Part shown: piece by piece, positions 24,300 through 50,247 of the stretch
Layout of the letters: the number at the start of each line of letters is the position of its first letter
How positions within the stretch are numbered: position 1 is the stretch's first letter
Source: Candidatus Latescibacterota bacterium
GTDB taxonomy: Bacteria; Latescibacterota; UBA2968
Direction: 5' to 3'
Length of the DNA: 64,000 nt
Assembly (NCBI GenBank): GCA_965207885.1
Contig: OZ242311.1
Location: 2,272,001 to 2,336,000, forward strand
The notes under the pieces: generated by a model
What the model saw: only the letters and a program-made list of their open reading frames with translations
Told to the model about the DNA's origin: nothing
The model's database searches: none
Made by a program: the position numbers and the translations under genes

Positions 24300-24315
24300 T
24301 GGCACTTTTTTTGCT
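24300..24315 (+). promoter_or_regulatory. Sigma54 (-24/-12) promoter for the uptake/catabolic operon
   Basis: TGGCAC-TTTTT-TTGCT with GG at 24301-02 and GC at 24313-14 (canonical spacing), in an AT-rich context downstream of a sigma54 activator gene. Confidence 0.8.
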
Positions 24316-24440
24316 TATATATTATATTAGATGAAAGAAAGTAATTTTTAGTGAATTGATTCAGCTACCTTAAAATTACACTTAATCCCTGCCAAATCTA
24401 CTGCCTCAATTTCTGTCCCGATTATCGCGAGGGATATACT

Positions 24441-24842
24441 TTGGACAGACGCATCTTGATTGTCTCCGAAGATTCCCGGCTGGTCTGGGACGTGAAAAAT
24501 CTTCTGTCTGGCGAACCTGTGGAACAGACTCAAGTGCGTTCCGGGCAGGCATGTCTGGATATGATTGTGAGTACTCCTGTAGAAATTGCCGTGATAGACG
24601 ACCGTCTCCAGGATATGCAGGCAGTGGATCTAATCAGAAATATCAAATCCACAGTGCCAGATATAATCGTCATCCTGGCTGCCTATAAACATTCTATCCA
24701 GCGGGAAATAGAGGCCAGGCGAGTTGGGGCTTTCTACTGTATCATCGGTCCCGGCGAATACGATACCCTCTACCAGTTTTTGCTACAGGCCATTGCGTTA
24801 GAAAGCAGACATCTTTTGAGGAAACATAGACAAAGGAGGTGA
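24441..24842 (+). CDS. Stand-alone atypical receiver (REC) domain protein
   Basis: RILIVSED...IAVIDDRLQDM...DLIRNIK...GAFYCIIGP pattern; TTG start with a GAGGGA RBS. Confidence 0.7.
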   Translation: MDRRILIVSEDSRLVWDVKNLLSGEPVEQTQVRSGQACLDMIVSTPVEIAVIDDRLQDMQAVDLIRNIKSTVPDIIVILAAYKHSIQREIEARRVGAFYCIIGPGEYDTLYQFLLQAIALESRHLLRKHRQRR

Positions 24843-24921
24843 TATCGCGTTTAACATAGCTACAATAGTCGCGATAGATGTGGACTCATCCTGATTACAC
24901 CAAATCCGAGAGGAGGCGTTT

Positions 24922-25632
24922 ATGATTCGATTCCGAAGTATTTTGTTTGGCGGAGTTCTCGTGTTGGCCCTGGGGGGAATCTCATTCGCCCAGGACTTTA
25001 CCCCTCGAGTGGGCGTCGCGGGGAATATTAGCGTGAACCTGCCTGTACTGGGACTCCGAACCTGGTTTACACAGGCCCCGCAATTCGGGGTCAATATTGT
25101 GTATCATCGCCATGCGCGGATAGAGGTGGAGTACGAATACCACCACGCCCGGTTTGACGGTGGGACTCTGGAGGATGCCGAGTTTATGTGGGCGCCTACC
25201 GGTACCACAGATCTTCAGTCTTACAAAAGTCCCAACGCGCAATCCAAGATGCGTTTTCACAGCTTTCTGGTCAACGGCGTCTTCTTTTTTGGCAAGCAAC
25301 TCAACGACCAAAAGGCTCGGCCTTATTTCACATTCGGGAGCGGTATGTATCACTATCGTACTACTGAAACAGGGCTGATCTTTCCAGGCCAAACGGGTAA
25401 TTCGTTGAACACCAGCATTGTTCTGGAATCCGACGGGGATGTCCGAACAACTGTCGGTATCAATTTCGGTCTGGGCGTTGCTTTCTATACATCCGATCGA
25501 TTCGCCCTTGATTTGCGTGGTCGATACCACATTATCATAGGTCAGTTGCGCCCCATGGAGGCGTGGGGATTGAAGCAGGTCTTTCCCTTCCATGCGCTGG
25601 ATCTGGGCATTCGCGTGAAGACCTACTTTTAG
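24922..25632 (+). CDS. Small outer-membrane beta-barrel protein
   Basis: Signal peptide, alternating beta-strands (RPYFTFGSG, GINFGLG, LDLRGRYH) and C-terminal Phe. Confidence 0.8.
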   Translation: MIRFRSILFGGVLVLALGGISFAQDFTPRVGVAGNISVNLPVLGLRTWFTQAPQFGVNIVYHRHARIEVEYEYHHARFDGGTLEDAEFMWAPTGTTDLQSYKSPNAQSKMRFHSFLVNGVFFFGKQLNDQKARPYFTFGSGMYHYRTTETGLIFPGQTGNSLNTSIVLESDGDVRTTVGINFGLGVAFYTSDRFALDLRGRYHIIIGQLRPMEAWGLKQVFPFHALDLGIRVKTYF

Positions 25633-27745
25633 GGGGAACACAATATGCGAGAATCAAAACGAATTCTCCTGTGGTGCATGACGCTGAGTCTGGTTCTGTT
25701 TGGCGCTGATTTGACATTCGCTGCCACTACGGGAAAGATTTCCGGTACTGTCAGAGATGCGCAGGGACAACCGCTTCCCGGAGCCAATGTGGTCGTCAAA
25801 GGGATGCGTTTGGGGGCTACCACAGACGCCGAAGGAATCTATTTTATTCTTACTGTACCACCCGGATTGCACACACTGACTGCATCTCTGGTGGGCTATG
25901 GAACGATCTCTCAAACCGATGTAAAAGTCGCCGTTGACCTGACTACGACGGTCGATTTCGCGCTGGAGGAAATAGCTCTACAGGCCACAGAACTGATTGT
26001 GATTGCCGAGCGTCCACCCGTGGAGCCGGACAAAACCACCAGCAAATACATCATGGGATCAGAGGATATCGAGTCACTTCCCATCATCAGAAGCGTCTCT
26101 GAACTCCTCGCTTTACAGCCCGGCGTTTTGCCGGAGGGAAACGACATGATTCGCGGAACTGGTGCCGCGGATGTGACCTATTACATAGATGGAATCCCCA
26201 TTGTGACCACCGATGGCGTGGGTGCATTTGACCGTTTCCAGTTTCAAAACACATCGGCTGTCCAGGAACTCACCATATTGACCGGAGGATGGGAGGCAGA
26301 ATATGGCAATGCCCAGGCCGGTATCATCAACCTGGTCACGCGGGAGGCAGGGGAAAACTATTCGGGACGATTGGAGTACAAGTTTGATCCTTCGGGCAAA
26401 AAACACTGGGGCAACGACGTTTACGACGCCCCTCAGTTTAGAGATAACTTGAAGTGGGGAGATGCCGCCTGGGAAAATGAGACAGATCCCGAAACGGGAC
26501 AAACTATTCACCAGCGGATCGATTATACCGATGCAGCAGGCCATTTCATAGAGGCGAATCTATCTGGACCACTTACGCCTGACGCCGGGCTATTCGTCAG
26601 TACGCGCTTTGATCGGTCCTCCCGTTCGTTTCCTTCCTCTTCCTCGCACACTCCTGGAAATACCCGCAATACAGTCAAGCTAAATTACAATATGTCAGAC
26701 AATGTAAAGTTCAAGCTCGGCGGATTCTACCATTGGAGCAAAGGGTGGAACAACGGCACCAGTTTGGGCAGAAGCGCCACGGCCGGTGCTATCCGAGGCC
26801 TGGGAGACGGTGGGAGAAACGTCTTTCTACCGGAAGGAAGTTCTGCGGGACGGTTCACGGATAGTGAGAGTTTGATCTACGTCTCTTTGACCCATACCCT
26901 GAGTCCAAAGACATTCTATGAAGCCAAAATATCGCGCTCTTTTTCCAAACAGGATACCAGCGATATTCCCGTAGCGACCCAGCCCCTGCGCAGGGATGCG
27001 GCCGGGTACTTCAACCTGTCGCGCGACGTGCGTGCCTACGAAATTTCAGCGCGCGCGCGTTACAACGTCAAGTTCGATATTTCCAGCCAGATCACGAGGG
27101 GACATCTGGTCAAGACCGGGATTGACTTCACCTATTCCGACGCCTGGGCATTTGGGGAGATTGGAGAAAACGAATCTCGCCGCGTCGTTGCCTTTTACTC
27201 AAAAGATGGGGCTTCAGATGGAAACTTTCAGCGGGGAATCAACCCTTTTCAGTGGGGACTCTATTTGCAAGATAAGATGGAATTCAGCGGCATGATCGTC
27301 AATGCAGGCGTTCGTCTGGATGGATTCCACAATGGAGAAAAAGGCTCCGCAGTTCCATCTTTTGAAACATCACCTATGTACAACAAACTCCGACATTTTC
27401 GAAACGCACCACGGGCAGACGCCGATGCCAAAATCGCGTTCAGCCCTCGATTGGGTGTTTCACATCCCATCACCGCTGCAAGCACCATCCGGTTTTTCTA
27501 TGGGAGATTTTACAAATTTCCGAATCTCTGGACGATGAATCGGCAGGTCTGGGTGGGGAGCTTTCCCGACATCGACATCAACGACAACGGACAGATCGAT
27601 CCCGAGGAGAGGTTCAATGATCTCGGAAAGGAAAACCAGATCGGCGTTGGAAACATGGCGACACCGCCCGAGAAAACCACCAGTTTTGAAGTGGGAACCG
27701 ACTGGAACGTGGTTTCGGACTATACCCTGTCGCTAACCGCCTACT

Positions 27746-28943
27746 CATGGTACACGACAAAACTTAAATTGTTTTAAACAGTGGCGGATTACTCAGTAAA
27801 CGAATGCATATGAGGAACTGTTGGGTTTGTTGGTTTATATTGAGCAGGACATACTGCAAATAGTCCAACCCATATCGGAAGAGACTTTTCTCCATCCGCC
27901 CGTGATTTTTGATCGTCAAAGGATTTGTTTTTGCTATCCATTCGCCGATGATATGCGCCCAGATGCAGGCAATGGCCAAAAGCGCGATGAGTTTCTCAAT
28001 GCGGTCTTGATGTATAAGATGGGTCTCTTCCAGATTAAATCCTCGACTTTTAAGATTGGCAAAAAGGACTTCAATGCCCCATCGTTTTTTATAGGTATCC
28101 AATGCGGCTTGACCTTTTTGGTTGCTGGCAAGAATGAGGTATTGGTCCTTCAATCTTAGTGCAGACAGATATACAGGCAGGTCATAAACGCGGTGGCGTT
28201 TGCACAAGTTGACCTGCTGATGGATATTAAGATTTTCAAACCGTTTTCTTATGGGGATCTCTCTACCGCCTGATGAGACAAGAGCGTTTTCCTTGATGCG
28301 AATAACAAAGGGTATATTTTGTGTGTCTAACCACCTAAACCATTCTCTTCCAATAAATTCTCTGTCTGCGACGACAACGCGGATATGCGATTTGCAGATG
28401 CAGTTGAGCATTTCTTGCATCAAATGGATACGCTCATCACTATTGGAATTGCCCCGTTTTTTTAACAAGTGCCAACAGATAGGAAAGGCGACCCCTTCAT
28501 AGATAATGCCTGCGGTTAGGATGTTGATATTGAATTTTCCCAACTTCCAATTGGTGCGATCTATTGAGACTATAAAATCCGACTTTATAGGTAATAAGTG
28601 CAAGATCAATTGTCTCACACACGCATAGGGTAAGGCAAAGTGGGCAAAGAAGCGTTGGATACGACGATAATTAGATTTCTGCTTGACGGTTCCATTGAGT
28701 GCGTTTGCCAGTTTCATAAAATTGACGCTACGCAATTTTATCAGCGACAATATGAACGCAGCGGTAAACGTTATTCGGGCTTTATGCCAGTGAAAATATC
28801 CTTGCATAATCGTTTGAAGTTCAATAGTTTCAGGAGACATAGACCTGTGCCTTGTTAAGATGAGAAAGGTTTGTCTTGGGACATTCAAACCTAACTCTTT
28901 TTAGCTTTTTTCACAGGTCTTTTATTTTTTGTCGTGTACTATG
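27746..28943 (-). mobile_element. IS4-family insertion sequence, copy 2 (inverted relative to copy 1), 1198 bp
   Basis: Same terminal repeats and identical transposase translation; 9-bp TSD CCGCCTACT at 27737-27745 and 28944-28952. Confidence 0.95.
27764..28888 (-). CDS. IS4-family DDE transposase
   Basis: Translation identical to 23093..24217. Confidence 0.93.
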   Translation of the reverse strand: MNVPRQTFLILTRHRSMSPETIELQTIMQGYFHWHKARITFTAAFILSLIKLRSVNFMKLANALNGTVKQKSNYRRIQRFFAHFALPYACVRQLILHLLPIKSDFIVSIDRTNWKLGKFNINILTAGIIYEGVAFPICWHLLKKRGNSNSDERIHLMQEMLNCICKSHIRVVVADREFIGREWFRWLDTQNIPFVIRIKENALVSSGGREIPIRKRFENLNIHQQVNLCKRHRVYDLPVYLSALRLKDQYLILASNQKGQAALDTYKKRWGIEVLFANLKSRGFNLEETHLIHQDRIEKLIALLAIACIWAHIIGEWIAKTNPLTIKNHGRMEKSLFRYGLDYLQYVLLNINQQTQQFLICIRLLSNPPLFKTI

Positions 28944-29919
28944 CCGCCTACTACAAAACGGTAGATAATCAGTTATCTACTGGTACAACGGGCGGCGAGA
29001 CGACGATCTGGCAGGACCCCGGCACGGGGAGAACCGAGCAGATCCGTGTCAACTTGAGTATTAGATATGAGGATATCAAGGGAATTGAACTGGGTTTCCA
29101 GAAGCGATTCAGCAATAACTTCGCGTTTCAGACTTCCTTTAACGCGCAGTGGCTATCGGGAGGGCGTGCAGGGGGAGCAGGAGACCGGTTCTTCCCGGAT
29201 TCAACGTGGGTCGCCGCTGGAAATTACTGGCTTGGCTATGAGATTCGAAACGGGCAGGAGGTTCCAATTCCACTGACCCAGGATGAGCTCCGAGAAATCG
29301 GATCCAAAGCGAATCAACTCCTTCGCGACATCCAGGCAGGTGGTGGTCCCAGCAAGGGGGCGGCAGGACCGAATGAACATTTTCTGGCGGCTATTGAAAA
29401 GGAACCCGGCATCTGGGCTATCACTCCCATTCTTTCCGAGTTGAATATTGGCGGCATACGAGGCAGGGACAGAACGGCATTTGGGAGCGTGGCGTTTCTC
29501 TATCGAACGCCGAGCGATTGGGGTCCAATGGTTGGCGAAGCGGGTTTGTTCGGGAATATTCAGGCCAACATGATTTATCGCATGCAGACCGGCAGCCGGT
29601 TCGAATACTCGCTTCCAGAAGGTGGCGTGGAGGAACGAAATGAGCCACTTCGCACCTGGGTTGATTTGAATGCCCAAAAGACGTTCTACGGCCTGGGGGA
29701 CCGCTTCGATGTCACGTTGTTCGTCGAAACATACAATCTGTTCAATCAGAAAGATCGGCGGGTAAACAACTTCGATTATATTCAATGGGGTTTGAGAAGA
29801 CCCGTACCAACAGACCAGCTCTACAGGGATTTCGGAGATCCGAACGACAGGGCCTTTCTGGGCTCCCCAAGGCAGGTGCATTTGGGATTGAGACTCAGCT
29901 TCTAAGAGGATAAGACAAC

Positions 29920-32181
29920 ATGATTACTATAAAAAGAAGAAGCATCTTGTTTCTGCTTTTTCCATTGCTGGCGACCCTCTTGCTAACTTCGGAATTGTGG
30001 GCGCAGTCGAGTCCCTTCCAGAGGAAATTTCGACACATGACGCGGGGGAAGGTCTGGCATACGTACAGAAACGGACTCACAGGTCGGGTTCACCGACAGG
30101 TGATGAGGGATATAGCCGGTATGCAATATCCGGGTTCTATCATTCCGCTGGAACCCACCGAGTTTGAGCAATACTGGAGCTTTGTCAACTATCACTGGTT
30201 TCCGCGGTTTACCCGCCGATACGACACCTCTCGGGGCGAGGGTGTAATGATTCTAACAAGAGATCACGGCACCTCGGCAGTTGGCCCGAGTCAGGAAACC
30301 GAGGATATTCGGGAAAAGGTCTATGACATTGTCAATAGCCCGGAAAAAGATCTGGGATTTATGACCGCCTCCCACTTTACCGGGTTCAGCCCGATGTCCA
30401 ACTACTGGCCCGGAGCACCTCCAATTGTGGGTGAGCCTGTGGAAATCCACAACCACGACTATGGGCGGTATATCGGGGACGATTCTCAAGGTGAGGAAAT
30501 TCTCATCACGGCATGGTCCTCCAAAACGGGTATCAGTGTGTCGCAAAAAGCCTTTTCCTGGAGCTATCCCGACTTTGACGACTTCATCATTTACGAATAT
30601 ACTTTCCACAACAATGGAGACGCCAACGGAGATGGCCAGCCGGACCCGCCCGGTATGCCCGTGCAACTCAACGACGTCTATTTTGCGTTCGTAAACATCA
30701 TGACCATCTCTCAGGCGGGGTGCTTTATTTCAAGCCCGGGTGCGTGGTGGGTCGATTTCCCCGAATTGAGGGACGATTTCTACAGATACACCGGTGCAGC
30801 TAACTACGACGGTCCGGCCGAATACGCTGACCTGAAGCTCAGCTACCACTACGACGGGGACGCGCCTTCTACTTTGTGGAATGACGTTGGTGGACCCTAC
30901 GTTTCGGCGCGTCACCATTCACTGTTCAAAGGCACGGCGCGAGTCGATGGAGAACTGACAGACTTCCAGTACTTTGGGTTTGCCCCTCTGGATTATACCC
31001 CACCCTTTACAAACGATTCGGAAAACTACGTTGCGCCAAAAGTCGCGGATCAGCCGGTGTCGGTAAAGTGGTGGGAAATCTTCAGCAGAAATAACTACAC
31101 ATATCCGGATCCCAGTAATGATGGTGATGAGCAACTGTGGAATAAACTCGTCGAAGACCAGGGATTCCAATCCAATCCCACCGACATCGGTGATTACGCC
31201 CACAGTCAGACGTATGGACCATACGATATTGGTCCTGGTGAAAAAGTGAAAATCGTGGCGGTTTTTGCCGGGGGAACAGCTGCCGACGCCAAGGGTACGG
31301 GCATCATCGAATGGGCGCAAACGGGCAATCAAGACGAGGTTTCACTGGGCAGGGAGGCCCTCGTGGATCATGTGCGCCGTGCTCAATTCGCCTACGATAG
31401 CGGCTACGATCTGCCCGACCCGCCTCCGGATGTGCGATTTTCAGTGGGAAATAGCGAACGTGGGCGGGTTCTCCTCACATGGCCAGATGATGCCGATCGC
31501 GCGTTGGATCCAGACTATGGTCAGGCCGACGTAAGAGCCTACCGGGTCTATCGTACAGCGACCAAGGAAGCGGGGCCTTACAAGTTGCTGAAAGAGATTC
31601 CCGTAGGAGATGCCGCGCATTTGAGTGGCGGCATCTATTCCTTCGAGGATGAGACTTCCGCTCCCGGCTTCAACTACTGGTACTCGGTCCGCTCGGTCGA
31701 TTCCGGGCATTCATCCTGGACTAATAACGACGGTACCAAGACGCTTGCAGACCTGCCCGACAAGGTGCGGCAGAATGTCCAGAGTGGCATGGAAAGCGGA
31801 CATTCCTCGCCTGAGCAGCGGATGCAGGTCTTCACCAGTCCGAAGATCCCCGCAACGGATACCAAAGACAATTTCGGCGATGAAATCCTGGTTGTGCCCA
31901 ATCCCTATCGGGATGATGGCACACACAGGTATCCGGGATCCAGAAAGATTCGATTTACAAATATTCCCAGAAAGGCCCAGATCAAGATCTATTCTCCATC
32001 TGGAGACCTGATCTGGACGATCAATCACGATTCGCCCTTGGGAGAGGCAGAATGGAATCAGGCGCCGCGATCCTTCGCGAGGCCGGAAGTACAGTCAGGC
32101 ATCTACTTCTACTCTGTAGAGTCTCTTGTGGGCTCATCTCAGGGGGAGATGCGGTTCGGTTCATTTGTAATCATCAAATAG
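29920..32181 (+). CDS. Secreted protein with an FN3/Ig-like domain and a T9SS-sorting-like C-terminal domain
   Basis: Cleavable signal peptide (LWA-Q, no lipobox), P-PP...LTW...YRVYR...YWYSV-S-D Ig-like segment, and VVPNPY...IKIYSPSG-LI...W...SGIYFY...FVIIK at the C-terminus. Confidence 0.7.
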   Translation: MITIKRRSILFLLFPLLATLLLTSELWAQSSPFQRKFRHMTRGKVWHTYRNGLTGRVHRQVMRDIAGMQYPGSIIPLEPTEFEQYWSFVNYHWFPRFTRRYDTSRGEGVMILTRDHGTSAVGPSQETEDIREKVYDIVNSPEKDLGFMTASHFTGFSPMSNYWPGAPPIVGEPVEIHNHDYGRYIGDDSQGEEILITAWSSKTGISVSQKAFSWSYPDFDDFIIYEYTFHNNGDANGDGQPDPPGMPVQLNDVYFAFVNIMTISQAGCFISSPGAWWVDFPELRDDFYRYTGAANYDGPAEYADLKLSYHYDGDAPSTLWNDVGGPYVSARHHSLFKGTARVDGELTDFQYFGFAPLDYTPPFTNDSENYVAPKVADQPVSVKWWEIFSRNNYTYPDPSNDGDEQLWNKLVEDQGFQSNPTDIGDYAHSQTYGPYDIGPGEKVKIVAVFAGGTAADAKGTGIIEWAQTGNQDEVSLGREALVDHVRRAQFAYDSGYDLPDPPPDVRFSVGNSERGRVLLTWPDDADRALDPDYGQADVRAYRVYRTATKEAGPYKLLKEIPVGDAAHLSGGIYSFEDETSAPGFNYWYSVRSVDSGHSSWTNNDGTKTLADLPDKVRQNVQSGMESGHSSPEQRMQVFTSPKIPATDTKDNFGDEILVVPNPYRDDGTHRYPGSRKIRFTNIPRKAQIKIYSPSGDLIWTINHDSPLGEAEWNQAPRSFARPEVQSGIYFYSVESLVGSSQGEMRFGSFVIIK

Positions 32182-32196
32182 TCAAGGAGCTTTGCT

Positions 32197-33186
32197 ATGA
32201 TGACCAGGATATACGCATCGATCTGCGTATTCGCGATTGTGATTTTGCTGCAATCGCCCGCCCAGGGACAGGGATATGTGGAAATCAAGGATGAGGACAT
32301 TTACTCCTCAACCGCTGCTTCGCGAATTGGGCTTACAGGATTTGCATTTCTGAAGATTTCCCAGGGGGCGCGATCGGTGGGAATGGGGGATGCGTACACG
32401 GCCATATCCAATGATATCAATGCGGCATTCAAGAATCCTGCCGGCTTGACTCATATGAAACGGATTGAGTACGTGTTCTCTTACAACCGATGGTTGGTAA
32501 ACAGCACGGTTGCTTCCGGAGCTGTTGCGGCGAATACGCCGTATGGCGTGGTGGGCGTTACCTTTATCGGTTTCTACCCTGAGAAGAGCAAGGAAACCAC
32601 CATACTCCAGCCGCTCGGAACGGGAGAGATGGTGAATGCTGGGGATGTCGCCATCGGATTTCTTTACGCGAAGAAAATGACCGATAGGCTCTCCTTCGGC
32701 GTTCACGGTCGCTGGATTCAGGAAACGCTGCACGACAAAAAAATTTCCAGTTACGATGTCTCACTTGGCACGCTGTTCTACACGGGATTTGGCTCCAGCA
32801 GGTTGGCGATGACATTGCAGAATTTTGGCAAAGACGTAACGCCGGAAGCGGTCACTTTCGCCATGCCAATGGTCTTCAATATCGCCGCTGCTATGGAGGT
32901 TTACGGAACGATAGAAGATCCCACCTACCTCACAGCCGCAGTCGATTTCAGCTATGCCACTGATTTCGGTGAGCGGTTACATTTTGGCGGTGAACTCTGG
33001 GTCGCAAGGGTGCTCGCGCTTCGAGCTGGATACAAGACCAATTACGACATCGAGAGTTATTCACTTGGTGCCGGTGTTCGCGTGAACTATGTGGGAGGTA
33101 GGCAGGTCTCTGTCGATTTTGCCTATTCGGCGATTGAGGGTGGCTTCGATCCTCCGCTGCGCGTGTCTCTAAGCGGGAGTTTTTAG
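32197..33186 (+). CDS. PorV/PorQ-family (UPF0164-like) outer-membrane beta-barrel
   Basis: FLKISQGARSVGMGDAY-A...NPAGL, LALRAGY, DFAY and C-terminal Phe. Confidence 0.85.
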   Translation: MMTRIYASICVFAIVILLQSPAQGQGYVEIKDEDIYSSTAASRIGLTGFAFLKISQGARSVGMGDAYTAISNDINAAFKNPAGLTHMKRIEYVFSYNRWLVNSTVASGAVAANTPYGVVGVTFIGFYPEKSKETTILQPLGTGEMVNAGDVAIGFLYAKKMTDRLSFGVHGRWIQETLHDKKISSYDVSLGTLFYTGFGSSRLAMTLQNFGKDVTPEAVTFAMPMVFNIAAAMEVYGTIEDPTYLTAAVDFSYATDFGERLHFGGELWVARVLALRAGYKTNYDIESYSLGAGVRVNYVGGRQVSVDFAYSAIEGGFDPPLRVSLSGSF

Positions 33187-33210
33187 ACCGAAAGGATTGC
33201 GAGGAGAGAT

Positions 33211-35199: not shown

Positions 35200-35211
35200 A
35201 AGAGAGGCACC

Positions 35212-40065: not shown

Positions 40066-40081
40066 GAGAGGAGATGTTTCA

Positions 40082-41512: not shown

Positions 41513-41541
41513 TTCGCTCTGCGCCGCCTATGGAGAAAATC

Positions 41542-43038
41542 ATGGATAGAGTGATCATTGCAGAGTGCAAGCAGGAAGTCTCGACGTTTAATCCCGTATC
41601 CAGTCAGTATGACGATTTTCGAATCGTGCGTGGGCCTGATATGCTCGATTTCCATCGCGGCGTCGGTCACGAAGTCGGCGGTGCCCTGAGCGTTTTGGAC
41701 CGGAAAGAATCGTTTCACCTCGTGCCCACATACGGAGCATGTGCGAACACGTCTGGAGGTGTGCTTTCAAAAGAAGGCTTTGACCGTTTGAGCGATGAGT
41801 TTCTCGAAAGTATCCGGGATGCTGGTGAAGTGGATGGAGCTTATTTCTCGCTTCACGGTGCCATGCAGGCCGAGAGCGAAAATGATCCCGAAGGCTACTT
41901 GCTACAGGAAGCCCGTCGCATCCTCGGTGACCAGATTCCGATTGTGGTATCCCTGGACCTGCACGGTATCCTCACTGATCGGATGCTCGAGCATTGTGAC
42001 GCTGTCGTCACGTACCACACCTATCCGCATATAGACTTCGTCGCAACAGGAAAGCGCGCGGCCTTTCTGTTGACCAGGATGCTGGATGGAAATATTCGTC
42101 CCGTGACTGCAAGGGTCAAGATCCCGGCGCTGGTGCGTGGCGATGAAATGATTACTGAGACCGGGGCGATTCGCGAATGTATTCAACTGGCGAAGCAGAT
42201 CGAAACCAGCGAAGTGGGTCTTTCTGCCGGCGTGATGTGGGGAAACCCGTTCACCGATGTTCCGGAGCTTCGAACAAATAGTATCGTTGTCATGGACGGC
42301 GATGAAGCCGCCGCCATGCAATACGCGGTGGATCTGGCAAACCGGTTCTGGAAGCATCACGAAAAGATGCAGGTGCCCCTGACTGGCCTCGGAGAAGGCG
42401 TCCGGCTCGCTGCAGAAGTCGATTCCGGAACCGTCGTCATGATGGATGCAGCCGACGCGACCAGCTCCGGTGCATCGGGTGATAGCAATGCCATTGTGCG
42501 AGAACTGATGCGTCAGGAATATCCCGGGTGGGTCCTTGCACCGGTCGTGGATCCCGCTGCCGTCCAGAAAGCTTTCGACGCGGGCATAGGCGCCACCATT
42601 CGCACTACCGTAGGCGGTGCGTTCGACAGGGCCAGGTATGAACCTCTGGAAATAGAGGCCCGGGTTCACCTGCTTTCAGATGGCGTTTTTCGCAGCGAGA
42701 CCTTCGGCTGGCACTGGAATTCGGGAAATACTGCCGTTCTCAAGGTGGATAATTATACTCTTGTGGTCGGTACAAGGCCAGTCAGCCTGTTTGACCGATC
42801 GTGGTTTTACGCTCACGGGCAGGATCCTGAGAAATTCGATCTGGTTGTCGTAAAGTCGCCTCATTGCGAACCCCACATGTTTGCCGACTGGTGCGCGAAA
42901 CTGATCAATGTTGACGCCCCCGGGGCGACGAGCGCGAACTTGCAGAGCCTCGGACATACGATTTGTAATCGACCGATTTTTCCGCTGGATGATGTCATGG
43001 CATTTTCTCCGAAAGCGGATGTATTCCGTCGGAATTGA
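41542..43038 (+). CDS. M81-family metallopeptidase (MlrC-like)
   Basis: QE-STFNP, LHGAM, DLHG, YHTYPHID, VVKS and RPIFPLD; ATG 41542 with a GGAGAA RBS. Confidence 0.9.
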   Translation: MDRVIIAECKQEVSTFNPVSSQYDDFRIVRGPDMLDFHRGVGHEVGGALSVLDRKESFHLVPTYGACANTSGGVLSKEGFDRLSDEFLESIRDAGEVDGAYFSLHGAMQAESENDPEGYLLQEARRILGDQIPIVVSLDLHGILTDRMLEHCDAVVTYHTYPHIDFVATGKRAAFLLTRMLDGNIRPVTARVKIPALVRGDEMITETGAIRECIQLAKQIETSEVGLSAGVMWGNPFTDVPELRTNSIVVMDGDEAAAMQYAVDLANRFWKHHEKMQVPLTGLGEGVRLAAEVDSGTVVMMDAADATSSGASGDSNAIVRELMRQEYPGWVLAPVVDPAAVQKAFDAGIGATIRTTVGGAFDRARYEPLEIEARVHLLSDGVFRSETFGWHWNSGNTAVLKVDNYTLVVGTRPVSLFDRSWFYAHGQDPEKFDLVVVKSPHCEPHMFADWCAKLINVDAPGATSANLQSLGHTICNRPIFPLDDVMAFSPKADVFRRN

Positions 43039-43119
43039 ATGGGGCATGTCATCACCAACACATATATTGGATCACCCTCGCTTCCATCCAGCATTGGGAC
43101 TGATACAGAAAGAACGCCT

Positions 43120-44850
43120 ATGCCACACGCCAACCAGATTGATCCCATCCGATTTGAGGTCATCCGCAATGCGCTGTCCGAAGCCACGGAAGAAATGGCG
43201 ATTGCCCTGCGCCGCAGTGCTTACTCCACCAATATCAAAACCCGAGCCGACTTCTCCTGTGTCCTTTTTGACAGCCGGGTTCGGGTCGTCGCCCAGGCTT
43301 TCGCGCAGCCCGTCCACCTCGGCTCCCTGTCCTTACTTGTCCCCAGGATGGTGGAAGCATACGGGGCTGAAAATCTCGGCCCGGGTGACGCCATTTTGGC
43401 CAACGACCCCTATCTGGGTGGCGTACACCTGAATGACATCACCCTCATTTCACCCGTGTACCACAACAACATTTGCCTGGGATATGTTGCCAACCTGGCT
43501 CACCATGTAGATGTAGGTGGAGGGGCCCCTGCGAGTATCGGTGCTTTCAGGGAAGTCTTTCAAGAGGGTGTCATCATCCCGCCGGTCAAGCTCGTTGAGC
43601 GGGGCGAACTCGTCCCCAATATCTTCGATCTCATCCTCGCGCAAATTCGTTCGAAACGCGAAATGGCAGGCGATCTGCGTGCCCAAATCGCAGCCAACAA
43701 CACAGGTGTTCGCCGCTTATGTGCCCTCGCCGATCGCATGGGCAGCGACACGGTGTCGTTCTATATTCGCGAATTGATTGCCTACACGGAACGGCGCACG
43801 CGCGTGGAAATTGGAAATTTGCCGAATGGCGATTTTTCGGCGGATGGACAGGTGGATAACGACGGTTTTTCGGACCGACCAGTACACCTTGCCGCGCGAG
43901 TCAGTATTCAGAATGATCAGATATGCTTCGATTTTACCGGCTCTGACGTTCAGCGTAGCGCTCCGGTGAATTCAACCGTGGCGATGACTTTTTCCGCCTG
44001 TGCCTATGTTCTCAAGTGCCTCATTGATCCGGATGTGCCGGTCAATGCAGGTTTCTATAATGCGGTTCAAATGGTCGCGCCCGAGGGAACGGTTGTCAAC
44101 TGCTCTCCCCACGCACCGGTTGTCGGAGGCTGGGAGACCCAATTGCGGCTGACAGATGTCATGCTAAGGGCTTTGGCCCCCGCATTTCCCGATCACATTC
44201 CAGCAGGTACCAAAGCCATGGTATGTCATGCGGGGTTCGGCGGAATTATCGCCAGCACAGGCGAGTATTACTGCTTTTTGGAAACCCTGGCCGGTGGCTA
44301 TGGTGGTCGTGCCACGAGCGATGGGCCGGACGCCGTTCAGACCCATGGGCAGAACACCGAAAACGCACCCATTGAGGAAACAGAAATCAACTACCCTGTG
44401 CGCATTGCGCGCTACGAACTGGTCGAAAACTCCGAAGGTCCTGGTAAATTCCGGGGCGGATTGGGCCTCCGGCGTGATTACCTCTTCCCCGACTATGAAA
44501 CCTCCTTCACCATCCTCGCTGACCGGGATAGGATGGGCCCCAGGGGCCTATTCGGCGGCAAACCTGGTCGCACAGCCAGTTATTTCCTCAAATCGAATGG
44601 AGAAACCGTCCGACTTGGTTCGAAAACTACCGTTCAGCTCCAACCGGGAGACATTGTCAGCTATCGCACCTGCGGTGGCGGCGGCTACGGTCTGCCCGCG
44701 AAACGGGATCCCGAACGCGTGTTGCGCGATGTTCGAAACGGTATGGTCAGCCGGGAACGAGCAAGGGAGATCTACCGAACGGAGATCGATACGGAGGCCT
44801 GGCGTGTGAACGATGGAGAAACGATGAGGTTGCGGAGCGAGATTACCTGA
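43120..44850 (+). CDS. Hydantoinase B/oxoprolinase-family subunit (pair 1)
   Basis: DPI-FEV, NDPYLGGVHLND, HHVDVGG, QEG and GGGGYG-P--R. Confidence 0.92.
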   Translation: MPHANQIDPIRFEVIRNALSEATEEMAIALRRSAYSTNIKTRADFSCVLFDSRVRVVAQAFAQPVHLGSLSLLVPRMVEAYGAENLGPGDAILANDPYLGGVHLNDITLISPVYHNNICLGYVANLAHHVDVGGGAPASIGAFREVFQEGVIIPPVKLVERGELVPNIFDLILAQIRSKREMAGDLRAQIAANNTGVRRLCALADRMGSDTVSFYIRELIAYTERRTRVEIGNLPNGDFSADGQVDNDGFSDRPVHLAARVSIQNDQICFDFTGSDVQRSAPVNSTVAMTFSACAYVLKCLIDPDVPVNAGFYNAVQMVAPEGTVVNCSPHAPVVGGWETQLRLTDVMLRALAPAFPDHIPAGTKAMVCHAGFGGIIASTGEYYCFLETLAGGYGGRATSDGPDAVQTHGQNTENAPIEETEINYPVRIARYELVENSEGPGKFRGGLGLRRDYLFPDYETSFTILADRDRMGPRGLFGGKPGRTASYFLKSNGETVRLGSKTTVQLQPGDIVSYRTCGGGGYGLPAKRDPERVLRDVRNGMVSRERAREIYRTEIDTEAWRVNDGETMRLRSEIT

Positions 44851-44884
44851 TCATCCATCCACCCGGTTTTGGAGAAACATAAAA

Positions 44885-46966
44885 ATGGCGTACCGGCTGG
44901 GCATTGACATTGGTGGAACATTCACAGATGCAACGCTCATCGATGAAGAAACAGGAGAGATCCGCGTCGGTAAGGTGTCGTCCACGCCGCGGGATCCTTC
45001 CCTCGGATTTATGGAAGCCACCCGTCGAATTTTGGGCGAAGCAGAAATTGAACCGGCTGACGTGGGCTATATCGTACACGGAACCACAGTGGTCACTAAT
45101 GCGATTATCGAAGGCAAAACCGCTCGGACGGGTTTTATCACCACAGGTGGCTTCCGCGATCTGCTTGAAATCGCGCGCCAGACCCGTCCATCGCTTTACG
45201 ACCTGCAGTTTGAAAAGCCCCGACCGCTGGTACCGCGCTACCTCTGTTTCGGTGTGCCGGAGCGTCTGGATGCGAGGGGAAATATTCTCGAGCCTCTCGA
45301 TGAAAAAGCCGTCTCCGCCGCGGCGAGCCAACTGCGCCGGGAGGGTGTGGAATCGATCGCGGTCTGCCTACTTCACGCCTACACCAATCCCGTTCACGAG
45401 CAGCGAGTCGGAGAGATTCTGAGGAGGGACTTTCCCGAAGCGATGGTGTCGCTGTCTTCGGAAGTATCACCGGAATTCCGGGAGTATTTCCGGGCCAGCA
45501 CCACCGTCATCAACGCCTGTATTCGGCCTGTTGCTGCGCGCTATTTGGAAAACATCCAGGCCCGGTTGCGAGAAGAAGGGTTAATGGCGCAACTTTTGGT
45601 TATGCAAAGCAGTGGGGGAGTTCTGACCTTTGGAGCGGCAGCTAAAAAACCGGTTTTTCTCGTCGAATCAGGTCCCGCGGCTGGCGTGATCGCAGCTACC
45701 TATCTGGGCGATATACTGGGGCATCCCAATGTGATCTCTTTTGATATGGGAGGGACAACGGCCAAAGCGGGCCTCGTACAGGATGGGCGGCCCCAGGTGA
45801 CTAAGGATTACGAGGTGGGGGCTATTGCTCAGGCGGGCGCAGCAAGAGGCGGGGGATATCCCATCCGCACACCCGTCATCGACCTGGTGGAAATCGGCGC
45901 CGGTGGTGGGTCGATCGCCTGGATAGACCCGGGTGGTGTGTTGCGGGTGGGACCGCACAGCGCGGGAGCCGATCCCGGTCCGGTGTGCTACGGAAAGGGC
46001 GGCGATGATCCCACGATCACCGATGCCAACCTGGTGCTGGGGCGCCTCAACCCGGATTACTTTTTAGGCGGTGAGATCGCACTGGACGCAGAAGCCGCTC
46101 AAATGGCGATTCAGCAGAAATGCGCTGATCCGCTGGGACTGGATCCCGTAGAAGCCGCCCACGGGATTGTGGAAATCGCCAACGCGGCCATGGTCAACGC
46201 CCTTCGGCTGGTTTCTGTTCAGCGGGGATACGATCCGAGAGAATTCGTGCTGGTGGCCTTCGGCGGGGCAGGCCCGGTACATGCCAATCGCCTGATGGCA
46301 GAAATGGAGATTCCGACTACCCTGATTCCGATGAGTCCGGGAACCACTTCGGCGATGGGCCTGCTCGTGACAGATCTCAAGCACGATTATTCGACAACAT
46401 TCATATGCCAGGTAGATAAGCTGGATCTCAAAGAGGTGGCGACAGCGTTCCGCAATATGGAACAACAGGGGAGGGCGATACTGGAGGAAGAAGGGGTGCA
46501 GGACAAGGACAAGGACTTCCTGCGCCAGGTAGATATGCGCTATGTAGGCCAGAGCTATGAACTGACCGTGCCTCTTTCTGGAACTGAATTCACACCAGCC
46601 GGGATTGAAGCCCTGCTGATCTACTTTCATCGGGAACACGACCGGGCCTACGGATACAGCGCCCCTGAAGAACCTGCGGAATTTGTCAATCTTCGCCTTT
46701 CAGCAATTGGTCGAATCGCAAAACCCCGACTCCGTAGCCTCGATTCAAATTCAGACGTTCCGGCTCTCAAAACCAGCCGGCCCGTTTACTTTTCCGAGCG
46801 CAACGAATTTGTGGATTGTCCGATTTACGACCGCTATAACCTCGCCGCGGGGAATATTTTGGATGGACCTGCGATCGTTGAAGAAATTGATTCCACGACC
46901 GTTATCCACCCCGGATATCGGGGAACCGTAGATACGTACGGGAACCTGATTTTGACCCGGGTATAG
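44885..46966 (+). CDS. Hydantoinase A/oxoprolinase-family ATP-binding subunit (pair 1)
   Basis: DIGGTFTD, HGTT, ESGPAAG, DMGGTTAK and IGAGGGS. Confidence 0.93.
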   Translation: MAYRLGIDIGGTFTDATLIDEETGEIRVGKVSSTPRDPSLGFMEATRRILGEAEIEPADVGYIVHGTTVVTNAIIEGKTARTGFITTGGFRDLLEIARQTRPSLYDLQFEKPRPLVPRYLCFGVPERLDARGNILEPLDEKAVSAAASQLRREGVESIAVCLLHAYTNPVHEQRVGEILRRDFPEAMVSLSSEVSPEFREYFRASTTVINACIRPVAARYLENIQARLREEGLMAQLLVMQSSGGVLTFGAAAKKPVFLVESGPAAGVIAATYLGDILGHPNVISFDMGGTTAKAGLVQDGRPQVTKDYEVGAIAQAGAARGGGYPIRTPVIDLVEIGAGGGSIAWIDPGGVLRVGPHSAGADPGPVCYGKGGDDPTITDANLVLGRLNPDYFLGGEIALDAEAAQMAIQQKCADPLGLDPVEAAHGIVEIANAAMVNALRLVSVQRGYDPREFVLVAFGGAGPVHANRLMAEMEIPTTLIPMSPGTTSAMGLLVTDLKHDYSTTFICQVDKLDLKEVATAFRNMEQQGRAILEEEGVQDKDKDFLRQVDMRYVGQSYELTVPLSGTEFTPAGIEALLIYFHREHDRAYGYSAPEEPAEFVNLRLSAIGRIAKPRLRSLDSNSDVPALKTSRPVYFSERNEFVDCPIYDRYNLAAGNILDGPAIVEEIDSTTVIHPGYRGTVDTYGNLILTRV

Positions 46967-47014
46967 GGCAGAGCGAGACTTCTGGAATACACTGCCATGG
47001 CAGAGGAGCAAAGG

Positions 47015-48925
47015 ATGTCTCATACTGAAGCTGAATACGGAATCGTCCTGTCGAAAAACGTCATGGTCTCCATGCGGGACGGTACTCGTCTGGCCACAGA
47101 TATTTACCGCCCGGCACGCGATGGAGATCCACTGCCGGGACCCTTTCCCACAATTCTGTGTCGCACCCCGTATGACAAATCCGATGCACGCTATGAGGAA
47201 ATAGGAGACTTCTTTACGCCACACGGGTATGTGACTGTGCTCCAGGACCTGCGAGGCCGACACCTTTCTGAAGGTTTGGGTCAGTACTTCCACGTTGCCA
47301 ACATCAATGACGGTCTGGACGGCTATGATACTGTTGAATGGATCGCTGCCCAACCATGGTCAAACAAACGCGTGGGGGCTGTTGGCAGTTCTTTCGCGGC
47401 TCTGGTGCAGACACGAATGGCGTTTCACCGTCCGCCGCATCTCACCGCCATCTGGCCAGACGTAACACCTATTAACAGCTATCACCACCAGTCACGAGAA
47501 GGCGGAGCCATGCAGATGCACATGTTCTGGGCGCTTTACCTCCATGCTCAGGACGCACAGGAAATCCAGAATGACCCTGAAGCGCAGGACGCTGTCTGGA
47601 ACGATCTCCGCGGGATTCGCGAGCTTCTCGTTTCGATGCCGTTTCAGCCCGGTCAAACTGCTCTATCCGCAATTCCCAATCTCGAAAAAACGCTTTTTGA
47701 CTACTATCATCGGGGAGAATACGATAGTTTCTGGGAGCGGGAATACAACGATTTCGAGCGGAATTTCGAACGCCACGCAGATATTCCTGGCACCTATTCA
47801 AGCGGCTGGTACGACCCGTACGCGGTAGCCGTCACGGGCTATTTTGCCGCAATGGCCAAACAAAACTCTTCGCCGCAGCGACTGGTGATGGGCCCCTGGA
47901 ATCACGTGGGGATGAGAGGGGATTCTTCTTTCACGGGAGATGTAGATTTTGGATCTGATAGTGTTTGGGGTGTAAGCCGCTACTTCGAAGAGCAACACCG
48001 GTTTTTTGACGCGTGGCTAAGAGACGAGTCTTCGGGAAAGGAAGACGGTCCACCTGTGAGTATATTTGTGATGGGCGGGGGAACAGGGCGCAAAACAGAC
48101 GAGGGAAAATACCATCACGGAGGAAGATGGCGTCGTGAGTGGGAGTGGCCGTTGACCCGTACCCGTTCCATTCAGTACCACTTTCATTCGCAAGGCCTGC
48201 TGAGTACGGATGAGCCTGATGAGGAAAGCTCTCCCTTGTCCTTCACCTACGATCCCACCAATCCGGTACCCACGATTGGAGGCAGTCTGTGCGGTATCAT
48301 GGAACTCCCGGAGGATGATGGAGACCTGGACCAGATGTGGAGCCGGTTTCTCTCTCCTGTCACGCGACTGCGCAACATCGTCATTCCCGGGCCCGCCCAT
48401 CAAAAGGAATCTGCCGACGTATTTGGCGCGAATCCTCCCTACCAGCTTTTGGCGGATCGACCGGATGTGCTGGTCTTTCAGACGTTTCCTCTGGAGGAGG
48501 ATCTGGAAGTAACCGGATCCGCCATCGTTACATTGTGGATTTCTTCCTCGGCTCCCGATACCGATTTCACTGCGAAGCTCATTGACCTTGCGCCGGCCAA
48601 CGATGACTATCCGGATGGATATGCAATGAACCTCGTGGATTCCGTGATTCGCACGCGGTATCGAAATAGCTGGGAACAGGAAGAACTCATGGAACCCGGT
48701 GCAGTCTATCGGGTTCAGATTCCTCTGCCCCCAACCAGTAATTTGTTTCAAGCCGGGCATCGGATTCGAATCGATATATCCAGTAGCAATTTCCCCCGCC
48801 TGGACCTGAATCCCAATACGGGCGAACCGATGGGGAGACATACACAGATGGTACCCGCACGCAACACGGTATATATGGACAAGCAGTGCCCGTCGGGCGT
48901 ACTTCTGCCGACGATCCCGGTCTAA
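47015..48925 (+). CDS. CocE/NonD-family serine hydrolase (S15-like)
   Basis: MRDG-RLATDIYRP, RTPY, QDLRGR-SEG, G-S-F nucleophile motif, GWYD, GPWNH and SSSNFPR. Confidence 0.92.
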   Translation: MSHTEAEYGIVLSKNVMVSMRDGTRLATDIYRPARDGDPLPGPFPTILCRTPYDKSDARYEEIGDFFTPHGYVTVLQDLRGRHLSEGLGQYFHVANINDGLDGYDTVEWIAAQPWSNKRVGAVGSSFAALVQTRMAFHRPPHLTAIWPDVTPINSYHHQSREGGAMQMHMFWALYLHAQDAQEIQNDPEAQDAVWNDLRGIRELLVSMPFQPGQTALSAIPNLEKTLFDYYHRGEYDSFWEREYNDFERNFERHADIPGTYSSGWYDPYAVAVTGYFAAMAKQNSSPQRLVMGPWNHVGMRGDSSFTGDVDFGSDSVWGVSRYFEEQHRFFDAWLRDESSGKEDGPPVSIFVMGGGTGRKTDEGKYHHGGRWRREWEWPLTRTRSIQYHFHSQGLLSTDEPDEESSPLSFTYDPTNPVPTIGGSLCGIMELPEDDGDLDQMWSRFLSPVTRLRNIVIPGPAHQKESADVFGANPPYQLLADRPDVLVFQTFPLEEDLEVTGSAIVTLWISSSAPDTDFTAKLIDLAPANDDYPDGYAMNLVDSVIRTRYRNSWEQEELMEPGAVYRVQIPLPPTSNLFQAGHRIRIDISSSNFPRLDLNPNTGEPMGRHTQMVPARNTVYMDKQCPSGVLLPTIPV

Positions 48926-48945
48926 GCATTTATAGGAGAGAACAT

Positions 48946-50247
48946 ATGGGAACTCGATTACAGGCCGGATTTGCACGAACGGATATTACCCCAGATCTGG
49001 GATGTCTGCTGCTGGGCTACCCGGCCCCAGACCGCAGAGCCGAATCCGTACGTGACCGACTCTACGCGAATGCGCTCTACCTGGAACAAAATAGCGTGAG
49101 AGCCGTTATCTTGAGCCTTGATGTGTGCATTGTAGATGATGTCGAAGTCGAGTCCATTCGTCGGGGAATCCTCGATCGAACAGGCATTCCTTCGGATCAT
49201 ATCACTGTCTGTGCTATCCAGACTCACAGTGGACCCTGCACCATTGATTGCTGGGGATGGAGCGAAAAGGACAAACCGTATATCGATAGGCTCGTCGAGA
49301 GAAGCATTGAAGCCGCCGTCACCGCTGCTCAATCACCCATACCTGTAACTGTAGGCATCGGCACAACGCAGAGTGACGTGGGAGTCAACCGACGGGAGGT
49401 CCTTGAAAACCACGAGGTTGCACTGGGTGTCAATTCCTGGGGGCCTTATGATCCCGAGATGACCCTTTTGCGATTTGAAGGAAAAGATGGGCCGCTTGTC
49501 TCATTGATCCACTACGGCGCGCATCCAACCGTTTTCTCCAGTGCCAACAGGGCAGTGTCCCGCGATTGGCCAGGTGTCATGATCGACCGGGTGGAACACC
49601 TCACGGGCGCTCCGGTTTTCTTTGTCAACGGTGCCGTAGGTGATATCGCCCCCCGCACCAATAGCCTCCGCGCCGTCGGAGATGGCGAAATGGCACTCAT
49701 GGAAGTCGGTTTGCGAGCCGGAATGGATGCGATGCGTGCGTACCGGTCCATCAAGACGTTCCAGGACCTGCCGTTGTCCATCATTAACGGGGACATCATG
49801 ATGCCCTACCGGTCGCTGCCGCCACTGGAAGAAGCCGAGCGGGAGTTCGCCTTGACTAAATCCGAAAAGGATGAGCCAGGGAAGGGCATGTGCGAGTACA
49901 AACACTGGGAAGCCGTTATTCATGCCCACAAAACCGAACCGTTACCTGGCAAAACCTACCGGCAGGTGATCACCGCGCTCGGACCGATTGCGTTCGTCCC
50001 TTTTCCCGGCGAGCCATTCGCAGAAATCGTACTTCGATTGCGCCAGTACAGTCCCTTTCAATATACGCTTTGCGCCAGTACTTCGTGTGGCAGCTATGGC
50101 TATTTCGTCACGCGGGATTCGCTGCACCGCGGCGGGTACGAAGTTTGGGTGGCCAAAGCCTTTGGCGCGTACATTCTGGCGGAGAACATCGACGATGTTC
50201 TGGTCGAAGAAAATCTGGCTCTCCTGCGCAATCTGCACGACCTGTAG
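48946..50247 (+). CDS. Neutral/alkaline ceramidase-like amidohydrolase
   Basis: DITP, QTHSGP, VNRR, YGAHP, SRDWPG, PGEPF and GGYE; AGGAGA RBS. Confidence 0.8.
   Translation: MGTRLQAGFARTDITPDLGCLLLGYPAPDRRAESVRDRLYANALYLEQNSVRAVILSLDVCIVDDVEVESIRRGILDRTGIPSDHITVCAIQTHSGPCTIDCWGWSEKDKPYIDRLVERSIEAAVTAAQSPIPVTVGIGTTQSDVGVNRREVLENHEVALGVNSWGPYDPEMTLLRFEGKDGPLVSLIHYGAHPTVFSSANRAVSRDWPGVMIDRVEHLTGAPVFFVNGAVGDIAPRTNSLRAVGDGEMALMEVGLRAGMDAMRAYRSIKTFQDLPLSIINGDIMMPYRSLPPLEEAEREFALTKSEKDEPGKGMCEYKHWEAVIHAHKTEPLPGKTYRQVITALGPIAFVPFPGEPFAEIVLRLRQYSPFQYTLCASTSCGSYGYFVTRDSLHRGGYEVWVAKAFGAYILAENIDDVLVEENLALLRNLHDL

Follow-up and report, generated by a model that had tools for sequence, protein, structure and literature searches.

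A modular Latescibacterota uptake locus with a candidate barrel-tethered binding protein beside its TonB receptor

In this study, we analysed a run of genes on the plus strand (positions 24300-50247) of the genome of an uncultured, sponge-associated Candidatus Latescibacterota bacterium, within a 64-kb window, this being the whole stretch of DNA examined. We propose, with a probability of roughly 0.6, that this locus encodes one copy of a modular system with which Latescibacterota take up nutrients and which uses a secreted binding protein with a barrel of its own instead of SusD. SusC/SusD (RagA/RagB) pairs characterise the polysaccharide utilisation loci of Bacteroidota. Here, the front end consists of a small barrel, a TonB receptor, a secreted binding-type protein of 753 amino acids (aa) and its own PorV/PorQ-family outer-membrane barrel. 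The proposal draws on the modelled fold of the 753-aa protein, on the predicted docking of its tail on the neighbouring barrel and on the recurrence of this cassette throughout the genome and the phylum. Using open reading frame (ORF) calls, Pfam and NCBIfam, we located in 24300-50247 every gene product that an earlier reading of the letters (hereafter the original prediction) had listed there. The features are as follows, all on the plus strand:

24300-24314, sigma54 (-24/-12) promoter consensus TGGCACTTTTTTTGC, an exact TGGCAC-N5-TTGC
24441-24842, receiver-only response regulator (PF00072, 33.5 bits), first gene behind the promoter
24922-25632, small outer-membrane beta-barrel with a signal peptide (weak OMP_b-brl match)
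25645-27745 (ORF to 27777), 5′ part of the TonB receptor: signal peptide, CarboxypepD_reg, plug and start of the barrel
28944-29905 (ORF from 28934), 3′ part of the TonB receptor
29920-32181, 753-aa secreted protein: beta-supersandwich at about 31-500, Fn3 at about 505-595, private tail at about 655-753
32197-33186, private PorV/PorQ-family outer-membrane barrel of 329 aa (NF033709)
33211-35199, first DUF6785/DUF6784 polytopic inner-membrane protein, with a predicted OPT/Yellow-Stripe fold
35212-36561, first neutral-ceramidase-like amidase, N-terminal domain only, without signal peptide
36576-38048 (likely ATG; ORF from 36528), choline-sulfatase-like sulfatase without signal peptide
38077-40065, second DUF6785/DUF6784 permease with a predicted OPT fold, 69% identical to the first
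40082-41512, CehA/McbA-family PHP metallohydrolase (DUF3604; NF038032, 95.9 bits for a cut-off of 80)
41530-43038 (likely start; ORF from 41392), M81/MlrC-like metallopeptidase
43039-44850, hydantoinase/oxoprolinase B subunit (Pfam, NCBIfam)
44885-46966, hydantoinase/oxoprolinase A subunit of an ATP-dependent family (best model caprolactamase alpha, under its cut-off)
46997-48925, CocE/NonD (S15) serine hydrolase
48946-50247 (likely start; ORF from 48886), second neutral-ceramidase-like amidase

The run had been described as co-oriented and tightly packed. The genes do share one strand, and the gaps within this 16-gene run measure about 12-35 nucleotides (nt) when likely start codons are taken, but the receptor gene is split by an insertion sequence (IS). 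The two DUF6785/6784 genes are interspersed among nine enzyme genes.

We first consider the 753-aa protein. It carries a signal peptide and lacks a lipobox cysteine, in keeping with its original designation as a secreted non-lipoprotein, and the VVPNPY...SGIYFY tail reported for it is found in the translation of 29920-32181. It falls in no Pfam family, and none of the 30 relatives in the database bears a name other than hypothetical. In the predicted model (mean predicted local distance difference test, pLDDT, 85.5; predicted template modelling score, pTM, 0.87), residues 31-553 resemble the non-catalytic N-terminal beta-supersandwich of glycoside hydrolases of families GH94, GH15 and GH65, as well as galactose mutarotases. 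The best fold matches are 8rf9_A (Z 19.0; root-mean-square deviation, rmsd, 3.1; 253 residues aligned), 5nz7_A (Z 18.6) and 2cqs_A (Z 18.1), these three spanning rmsd values of 3.1-3.6 over 253-271 residues. Downstream of the supersandwich, the model shows an Fn3 domain followed by a beta-sandwich tail, and Foldseek matches include Fn3 and PorZ (5m11). No catalytic domain was recognised by Pfam, by NCBIfam or among the fold matches. As modelled, the protein has a binding-type domain and is neither a SusD/tetratricopeptide repeat (TPR) protein nor a recognisable enzyme. This upholds the original prediction, which had placed it outside both classes; a SusD reading was ruled out by the lack of a SusD Pfam match, the beta-rich model and the supersandwich fold. 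More generally, no SusD-family Pfam match was obtained for any of the 21 locus products at E 0.01. The whole genome holds a single SusD_RagB match, away from the locus (G000:C1:5491846-5492211, 33.1 bits); it contains an in-frame TAG and adjoins a 970-aa TonB receptor ORF at 5487969-5490881.

The neighbouring barrel passes the PorV/PorQ family model NF033709 (145.4 bits, cut-off 90), and its family profile matches the solved PorV 6h3i_F (E 3e-24). It stays under the PorV and PorQ equivalog cut-offs NF033710 and NF033711 (51.3 vs 250 and 56.7 vs 220 bits), and the BamG model matches it weakly (E 0.0076). The original prediction held that the tail is bound by this adjacent barrel, and complex prediction agrees: with the barrel and residues 500-753, the interface score ipSAE reached 0.91 in each of three runs, while the best score of the controls (n=3) was 0.00. 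The score mark used is reached by 116 of 157 solved complexes and by 2 of 215 mismatched pairs. The runs share at least 90% of their contacts, with a partner pLDDT of 81-82, and the predicted interface involves the VVPNP motif, which is invariant, as well as the C-terminal strand and the final ten residues. Thus, docking of the 753-aa protein on its neighbouring barrel through this tail is predicted. A precedent exists in the parts of PMC10202324 that deal with anchoring, where it is proposed that a PorV-like barrel retains the uncleaved tail of its cognate cargo and so anchors it, with PorQ-PorZ and PorP/SprF with type B cargo as examples.

The cassette is highly repeated. Within its own genome, blastp places paralogues of the 753-aa protein (19), of the barrel (20) and of the small barrel (12) side by side, the 12 small-barrel paralogues each sitting immediately upstream of a cassette receptor. 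A search profile made only of the tail retrieves 19 ORFs in the 6.2-Mb genome and nothing else; a PorV-like ORF lies within 59 nt of 18 of them and a TonB receptor within 242 nt of all 19. The same genome contains 22 PorV-family matches above the curated cut-off. Since adjacency to a receptor holds in 19/19 copies, the tethered domain would serve that receptor, as SusD serves SusC, and by this analogy a replacement of SusD by the tethered 753-aa protein is plausible.

Conservation extends beyond this genome. The 753-aa family is present in 99 of the 151 sampled genomes of the phylum, and the order receptor, tail protein, barrel is kept in 7/8 loci from four distant families, the small barrel being found in none of these eight. 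The whole 16-gene locus occurs in the same order in 4/4 sister genomes, which are Candidatus Latescibacterota metagenome-assembled genomes, at 89-99% amino-acid identity. The gene order is thus conserved, as the original prediction had required, and where tested none of the outcomes it had named as counting against it (a SusD/TPR or known-enzyme fold, the absence of an interface, loss of the order) was found. It had also singled out this locus as the best candidate of the window for a new system; here the picture changes, the locus standing among about 19 paralogous front ends whose back ends differ.

Indeed, the neighbours of the 17 other cassettes are varied: sulfatases, PhyH dioxygenases, oxidoreductases, M20 and M60 peptidases, a phosphotriesterase and metallo-beta-lactamase-fold proteins. 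No classic glycoside hydrolase family was found among them in the 20-kb stretches considered, and a DUF6785 gene lies within the stretch in 12 of the 17. Given these varied neighbours, the gene content indicates that the front end is generic and the back end specific to each copy.

In the working that we propose, the 753-aa protein would be exported by Sec and would then cross the outer membrane through the type IX translocon. The original prediction had called for a search for sprA, and SprA/Sov (TIGR04189) is present, with 501.6 and 117.3 bits in one 2097-aa frame, or 624.1 bits together for a cut-off of 200. The tail would not be removed and would stay docked on the extracellular face of the private barrel, as PorZ does on PorQ. 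The barrel would keep the binding domain beside the receptor, so that the ligand could be captured and handed over for TonB-powered import; this handover would be the job done by SusD in Bacteroidota. In the back end, the two permeases of predicted OPT/Yellow-Stripe fold would carry the compound into the cytoplasm, where the sulfatase, the ceramidase-like amidases, the PHP and M81 enzymes, the hydantoinase pair and the CocE/NonD hydrolase would break it down. Expression would be driven by the sigma54 promoter and the upstream activator.

The assignment of the permeases comes from structure prediction. The model of the first DUF6785/6784 protein (pLDDT 90.3) aligns with barley Yellow Stripe 1 (7wsr_A) over 552 of 600 residues with Z 23.1 and rmsd 4.0, the next-best structure match having a Z of only 5.0; Foldseek gives E 1e-8 and TM scores of 0.61/0.67. 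A sequence search of DUF6785 against solved structures returned nothing useful, and one database record labels a DUF6785 relative as an OPT/YSL family transporter. On the strength of the model, DUF6785/6784 is best described as a secondary transporter of predicted OPT/YSL fold. The genome holds 50 DUF6785 paralogues, many of them beside sulfatases. Sulfatases themselves are abundant in this 6.2-Mb genome, with 193 sulfatase-family ORF matches.

As for the enzymes, signal peptides were seen by eye only on the four outer-membrane products and on none of the nine enzymes. The hydantoinase/oxoprolinase family is ATP-dependent. Together, these two points would make both the enzymes and the breakdown cytoplasmic, as far as the sequences tell, and the imported compound would then have to be small. 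The sulfatase scores 339.9 bits with TIGR03417, under the cut-off of 433. The ceramidase-like amidases are distant from the neutral ceramidase of PDB 2zws (E 2.5e-6), the CocE/NonD hydrolase matches cocaine esterase (E 1e-69), and no solved relative of the PHP hydrolase was found by sequence. Neither Pfam nor NCBIfam detected glycoside hydrolases or lyases among the products of 24441-50247. We infer that the substrate is a small sulfated, amide- or lactam-rich molecule, for instance a modified oligopeptide, and not a polymer. The original prediction of an amide- or peptide-rich substrate is therefore retained in part: the enzyme set and the predicted OPT-fold permeases fit it, while the carbohydrate-associated fold of the binding-type domain and the genus-only link do not. 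It is a reasonable guess from gene content, kept within the genus only.

The head of the run had been assigned a sigma54 promoter, and an exact consensus is indeed present at 24300-24314; TGGCACTTTTTTTGC is the sole exact match within the 64-kb window, where matches with up to two mismatches number 81 for 69 expected. Both this element and the gene of an AAA+ activator upstream of it are present, the activator being whole in a sister genome and cut by an IS here. The intact sister protein measures 587 aa and has two AAA+ sigma54 domains and a helix-turn-helix (HTH). At L045:3547-5310 of the sister, the two sigma54-interaction domains are arranged in tandem and no receiver domain accompanies them. 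The receiver-only protein is a separate gene apart from the activator, the first behind the promoter (24441-24842). Consensus scans of 31500-51000 returned 14 sigma70 promoters (12.6 by chance) and 18 terminators (19.0 by chance); with these at chance level, it is from the gaps of about 12-35 nt alone that 24300-50247 is inferred to form one operon. Contigs from RNA libraries (two sponge metatranscriptome runs) span 24354-33978 and start about 40 nt past the -12 element, and a DNA run extends further upstream. These starts hint only weakly at transcription from the sigma54 promoter, since transcription starts are beyond what contigs can show and the libraries may contain DNA. The depth of the RNA-library contigs is lower over 34245-44239, a measure that cannot rank genes.

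Insertion elements mark this assembly. Together with the activator, they are arranged as follows:

20213-20524 (about), plus strand, 5′ piece of the activator gene, cut off from the rest by an IS
20525-21446 (about), strand not assigned, second kind of IS (DDE-transposase) inside the sigma54 activator gene
21447-22915, plus strand, remaining 3′ portion of the sigma54-dependent activator, with AAA+ and Fis-type HTH domains
23038-24235, plus strand, IS4-family element, copy 1, with a 9-bp duplication TAAATATAT, between the activator gene and the promoter
27746-28943, minus strand, IS4-family element, copy 2, with a 9-bp duplication CCGCCTACT, splitting the receptor

The two IS4-family copies (1198 nt) lie in inverted orientation and are 100% identical. 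The third element corresponds to a 922-nt insertion relative to the sister genome by blastn, and its ORF at 20893-21465 is a DDE_Tnp_1 transposase. Comparison with the sister genome shows both IS4-family copies to be simple insertions. An inversion between the two inverted copies was considered and excluded: a matching 9-bp duplication flanks each of them, and the sequence on either side runs collinear with that of the sister genome. Removal of the IS and of one duplication copy brings the parts of the receptor into frame, and the sister orthologue is an uninterrupted ORF of 1017 aa (L045:6829-9882). The locus stretch is present in sponge metagenomes from several studies. The empty-site junction 27736/28944 occurs in contigs of 4/4 public runs examined and is carried by two sponge metatranscriptome libraries; one empty-site contig of 11.8 kb differs at 0-3 letters. 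Among the matches listed, no contig joins the receptor flank to the IS, which is uninformative on the occupied allele. As four sister genomes and the 4/4 runs are IS-free, the insertion in the receptor is recent and an intact version occurs naturally. In the assembly studied, IS elements interrupt both the activator and the receptor, and the copy analysed here is therefore probably off.

The IS4-family element is itself widespread, with 22 copies in the genome at 99.7% protein identity and 17 at 81%; with the window copy as reference, the one-residue difference behind the 99.7% is a matter of start-codon notation. Of the 18 mapped cassettes, 5 have an element no more than about 550 nt upstream (window 23038-24235; L026:18122-19246; L030:17849-18973; L031:17986-19110; L029:18091-19206), as if it preferred the AT-rich promoter regions of cassettes.

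Several results weigh against the uptake system that we propose. At the level of the tail, Por_Secre_tail (PF18962/TIGR04183) is not matched at E 0.01 in Pfam or NCBIfam, CHU_C (PF13585; type B, TIGR04131) gives 17.7 bits for a cut-off of 27, and the PorZ model, the only NCBIfam match, gives 24.6 bits for a cut-off of 260. As for the secretion machinery, the search for porKLMN that the original prediction had coupled to that for sprA was less clear-cut: the GldL, GldM and GldN models found no match in the genome, the control genomes being equally silent, and GldK gave only FGE-like matches below cut-off. The PorU model reaches 244, 73 and 28 bits in one 1896-aa frame for a cut-off of 420. The docking score may in part be a memory of known structures and not the pair's own binding, since contacts between PorV and type IX C-terminal domains (CTDs) have already been solved experimentally, as the relevant part of PMC10994853 reports, and the score may reflect likeness to them. 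The lid role at the receptor is plausible, from gene order and analogy. The supersandwich is a carbohydrate-associated fold, while the back end suggests amides or peptides. With the Pfam OPT model, 0/41 DUF6785 members were matched at E 1. The enzyme set accompanies the cassette solely in genomes of the same genus and is found in 0/27 other related loci, a CocE paralogue in four of them excepted. Finally, the activator and the receptor are each interrupted by an IS in this assembly, a third element disturbing the surroundings of the promoter, and the RNA-library contigs are not able to prove transcription.

The restriction of the enzyme set to the genus could mean that cassette and enzyme block are functionally independent neighbours, the outer-membrane cassette importing something else, such as a sulfated glycan fragment, and the hydrolases acting on periplasmic compounds fed to them by the permeases. 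The quite different neighbours of other cassettes, the carbohydrate-associated fold and the 50 DUF6785 paralogues, many of which must be without a cassette, are in line with such a division. Nevertheless, we regard it as unlikely: the 16 genes are separated by only about 12-35 nt and terminator signals among them do not exceed chance, a single exact sigma54 promoter stands at the head, their order is the same in the four sisters, and DUF6785 is again found near 12 of the 17 other cassettes. Less probable still is a role of the 753-aa protein as surface enzyme or adhesin and not as a substrate-delivery lid, the private barrel only exporting and anchoring it and the receptor taking up what it releases or binds. 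The galactose-mutarotase fold can also be catalytic, as in the aldose epimerases (Z 11-13) and the GH174 fucanase 9k1g_B (Z 13.7) that the model resembles, and invariance across 34 sequences extends to many polar and acidic residues, among them N178, E192, N231, D285, N295, D312 and D366. However, the top-scoring matches (Z 17-19) are to non-catalytic N-terminal domains and the 753-aa protein has no catalytic domain downstream, no enzyme family of Pfam or NCBIfam is matched, and the pairing with a receptor in 19/19 copies fits a partner role.

A similar question arises for the barrel, as PorV belongs to the FadL family: it could be a FadL-type channel for a hydrophobic substrate such as an N-acyl lipid, and not an anchor. 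A weak Toluene_X/FadL Pfam match (E 5e-4) and the two ceramidase-like amidases of the locus would suit this role, which we nonetheless consider very improbable, given that the barrel passes the PorV/PorQ cut-off, co-occurs with the private tail in 18/19 copies and is predicted with high confidence to bind it, controls being null. The modular uptake system, with the tethered protein in place of SusD, thus remains our preferred reading.

Its distribution was followed with a relatives search profile (11 closer rows) that reached only Latescibacterota-type records. One stretch, L075, is titled uncultured Gemmatimonas and was rejected as cross-phylum evidence: it matches at the same places as G102, which is in the same class as the present genome, and L075 is therefore not cross-phylum synteny. 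The Gemmatimonas title is probably a mislabel. In L075, the barrel gene is absent between the tail protein and DUF6785. Look-alike clusters of the ESM Atlas labelled Bacteroidota and Ignavibacteriota (score 0.98) are unconfirmed leads only, and such cassettes may exist in other relatives of the Bacteroidota, a suggestion resting on these unverified leads. Among close relatives, the PorV-like orthologue of G039 (L047/L048) aligns in two overlapping pieces, maybe owing to a frameshift; in G039 and G070, the stretch from the second permease to the PHP gene is longer by about 1.6 kb, and only the last 109 residues of CocE were found in G086 (L051/L052). These sequences suggest erosion of the locus in several relatives.

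The surroundings of the locus are also of note. Downstream, the minus strand of 50326-63314 encodes two further hydantoinase A/B pairs, one B subunit (58242-61190) being fused to a class I/II aminotransferase, together with a beta-eliminating lyase, an AMP-binding enzyme and a ceramidase-like paralogue (56705-58126). This region has the appearance of a larger island devoted to organic nitrogen compounds. At the other end of the window, the minus strand of 568-12478 carries the genes of cytochrome c oxidase subunits I-III and of alternative complex III (ActD, an NrfD-like protein and an Fe-S/molybdopterin-like protein), which point to aerobic respiration.

TonB-dependent uptake with surface partners is the basis of Bacteroidota foraging, and SusD is the textbook partner. 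If our proposal is true, the roles of type IX families would extend from secretion and attachment to nutrient import, and it would explain how sulfatase-rich, uncultured sponge symbionts feed. The predicted OPT/Yellow-Stripe assignment also gives DUF6785/6784, with its 50 copies in this genome, a testable function. In a broader form, Latescibacterota, and by the unverified leads other relatives of the Bacteroidota, may build their TonB importers on a type-IX-exported binding protein tethered by a PorV paralogue of its own, which would be a second solution, independent of SusD, to the same problem. In the present copy, the OPT-fold permeases would then complete an uninterrupted path into the cytoplasm that involves no exported enzyme and serves to harvest small sulfated, amide-rich metabolites of the sponge host; we hold this view tentatively, at somewhat less than even odds.

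Searches of the literature, subscription journals and supplements excepted, found no description of a TonB receptor that is joined by a tailed partner and its private PorV paralogue, nor any paper naming DUF6785. The original claim of an undescribed system is thus borne out in so far as no description was found, but the parts extend known TonB import and PorV-family anchoring. In the sections of PMC4454575 that bear on them, the TonB receptors of a Latescibacteria genome are treated as B12 and iron importers only. What is new here is the predicted OPT fold of DUF6785/6784, the exclusivity of the tail type, an enzyme set that appears wholly cytoplasmic, and the three insertions together with an IS-free allele in public runs.

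Among known systems, the closest in layout is SusC/SusD of the Bacteroidota utilisation loci. Both have a large TonB receptor with an N-terminal carboxypeptidase-regulatory-like domain and plug (CarboxypepD_reg and Plug here, in SusC-like order), a receptor gene placed directly before that of a surface accessory protein, many paralogues, and substrate-specific genes that follow. In contrast, the receptor fails the SusC/RagA model TIGR04056 (68.5 bits for the intact orthologue L045:6829-9882, cut-off 368.25), the match covering only the N-terminal residues 31-248. Where SusD is a helical TPR lipoprotein, the partner here is beta-rich, secreted and tailed. The set further includes a private PorV-like barrel and, in many cases, a small barrel, and the locus has neither glycoside hydrolases nor exported enzymes.

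The predicted anchoring resembles that of PorQ-PorZ and PorV-PorU of the type IX attachment complex, in which a PorV-family barrel keeps an uncleaved C-terminal domain and holds the protein at the surface, as set out in the part of PMC10202324 on these pairs; the present tail matches the PorZ tail region, and PorZ (5m11) is among the Foldseek matches. It differs in that the barrel is under the PorQ and PorV equivalog cut-offs and in that the pair occurs in about 18 copies tied to TonB receptors, not to the secretion machinery. PorP/SprF and cargo with a type B CTD such as SprB, as described in the same part of PMC10202324, likewise combine a clustered cargo and cognate barrel with proposed anchoring, but they differ by the barrel family, by the tail (the type B model being below cut-off here) and by the motility link, absent here, where a TonB receptor is always adjacent. 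In BamG-BamH of the Bacteroidota BAM complex, the portion of PMC12578637 concerned describes a FadL/PorV-like barrel beside another barrel, with loops that hold an extracellular protein, and so provides a structural precedent for a tethering barrel next to a larger one. In that complex, BamA serves as the partner barrel and BamH is a lipoprotein; the relation in sequence is limited to the weak BamG match. Likewise, for the permeases, the whole-chain fold predicted for DUF6785/6784 is like that of OPT/YSL transporters (7wsr/7wst), while the sequences differ, with 12-14% identity and no match to the OPT Pfam model. Altogether, the system is TonB import with a surface partner combined with PorV-family anchoring, both of known kinds.

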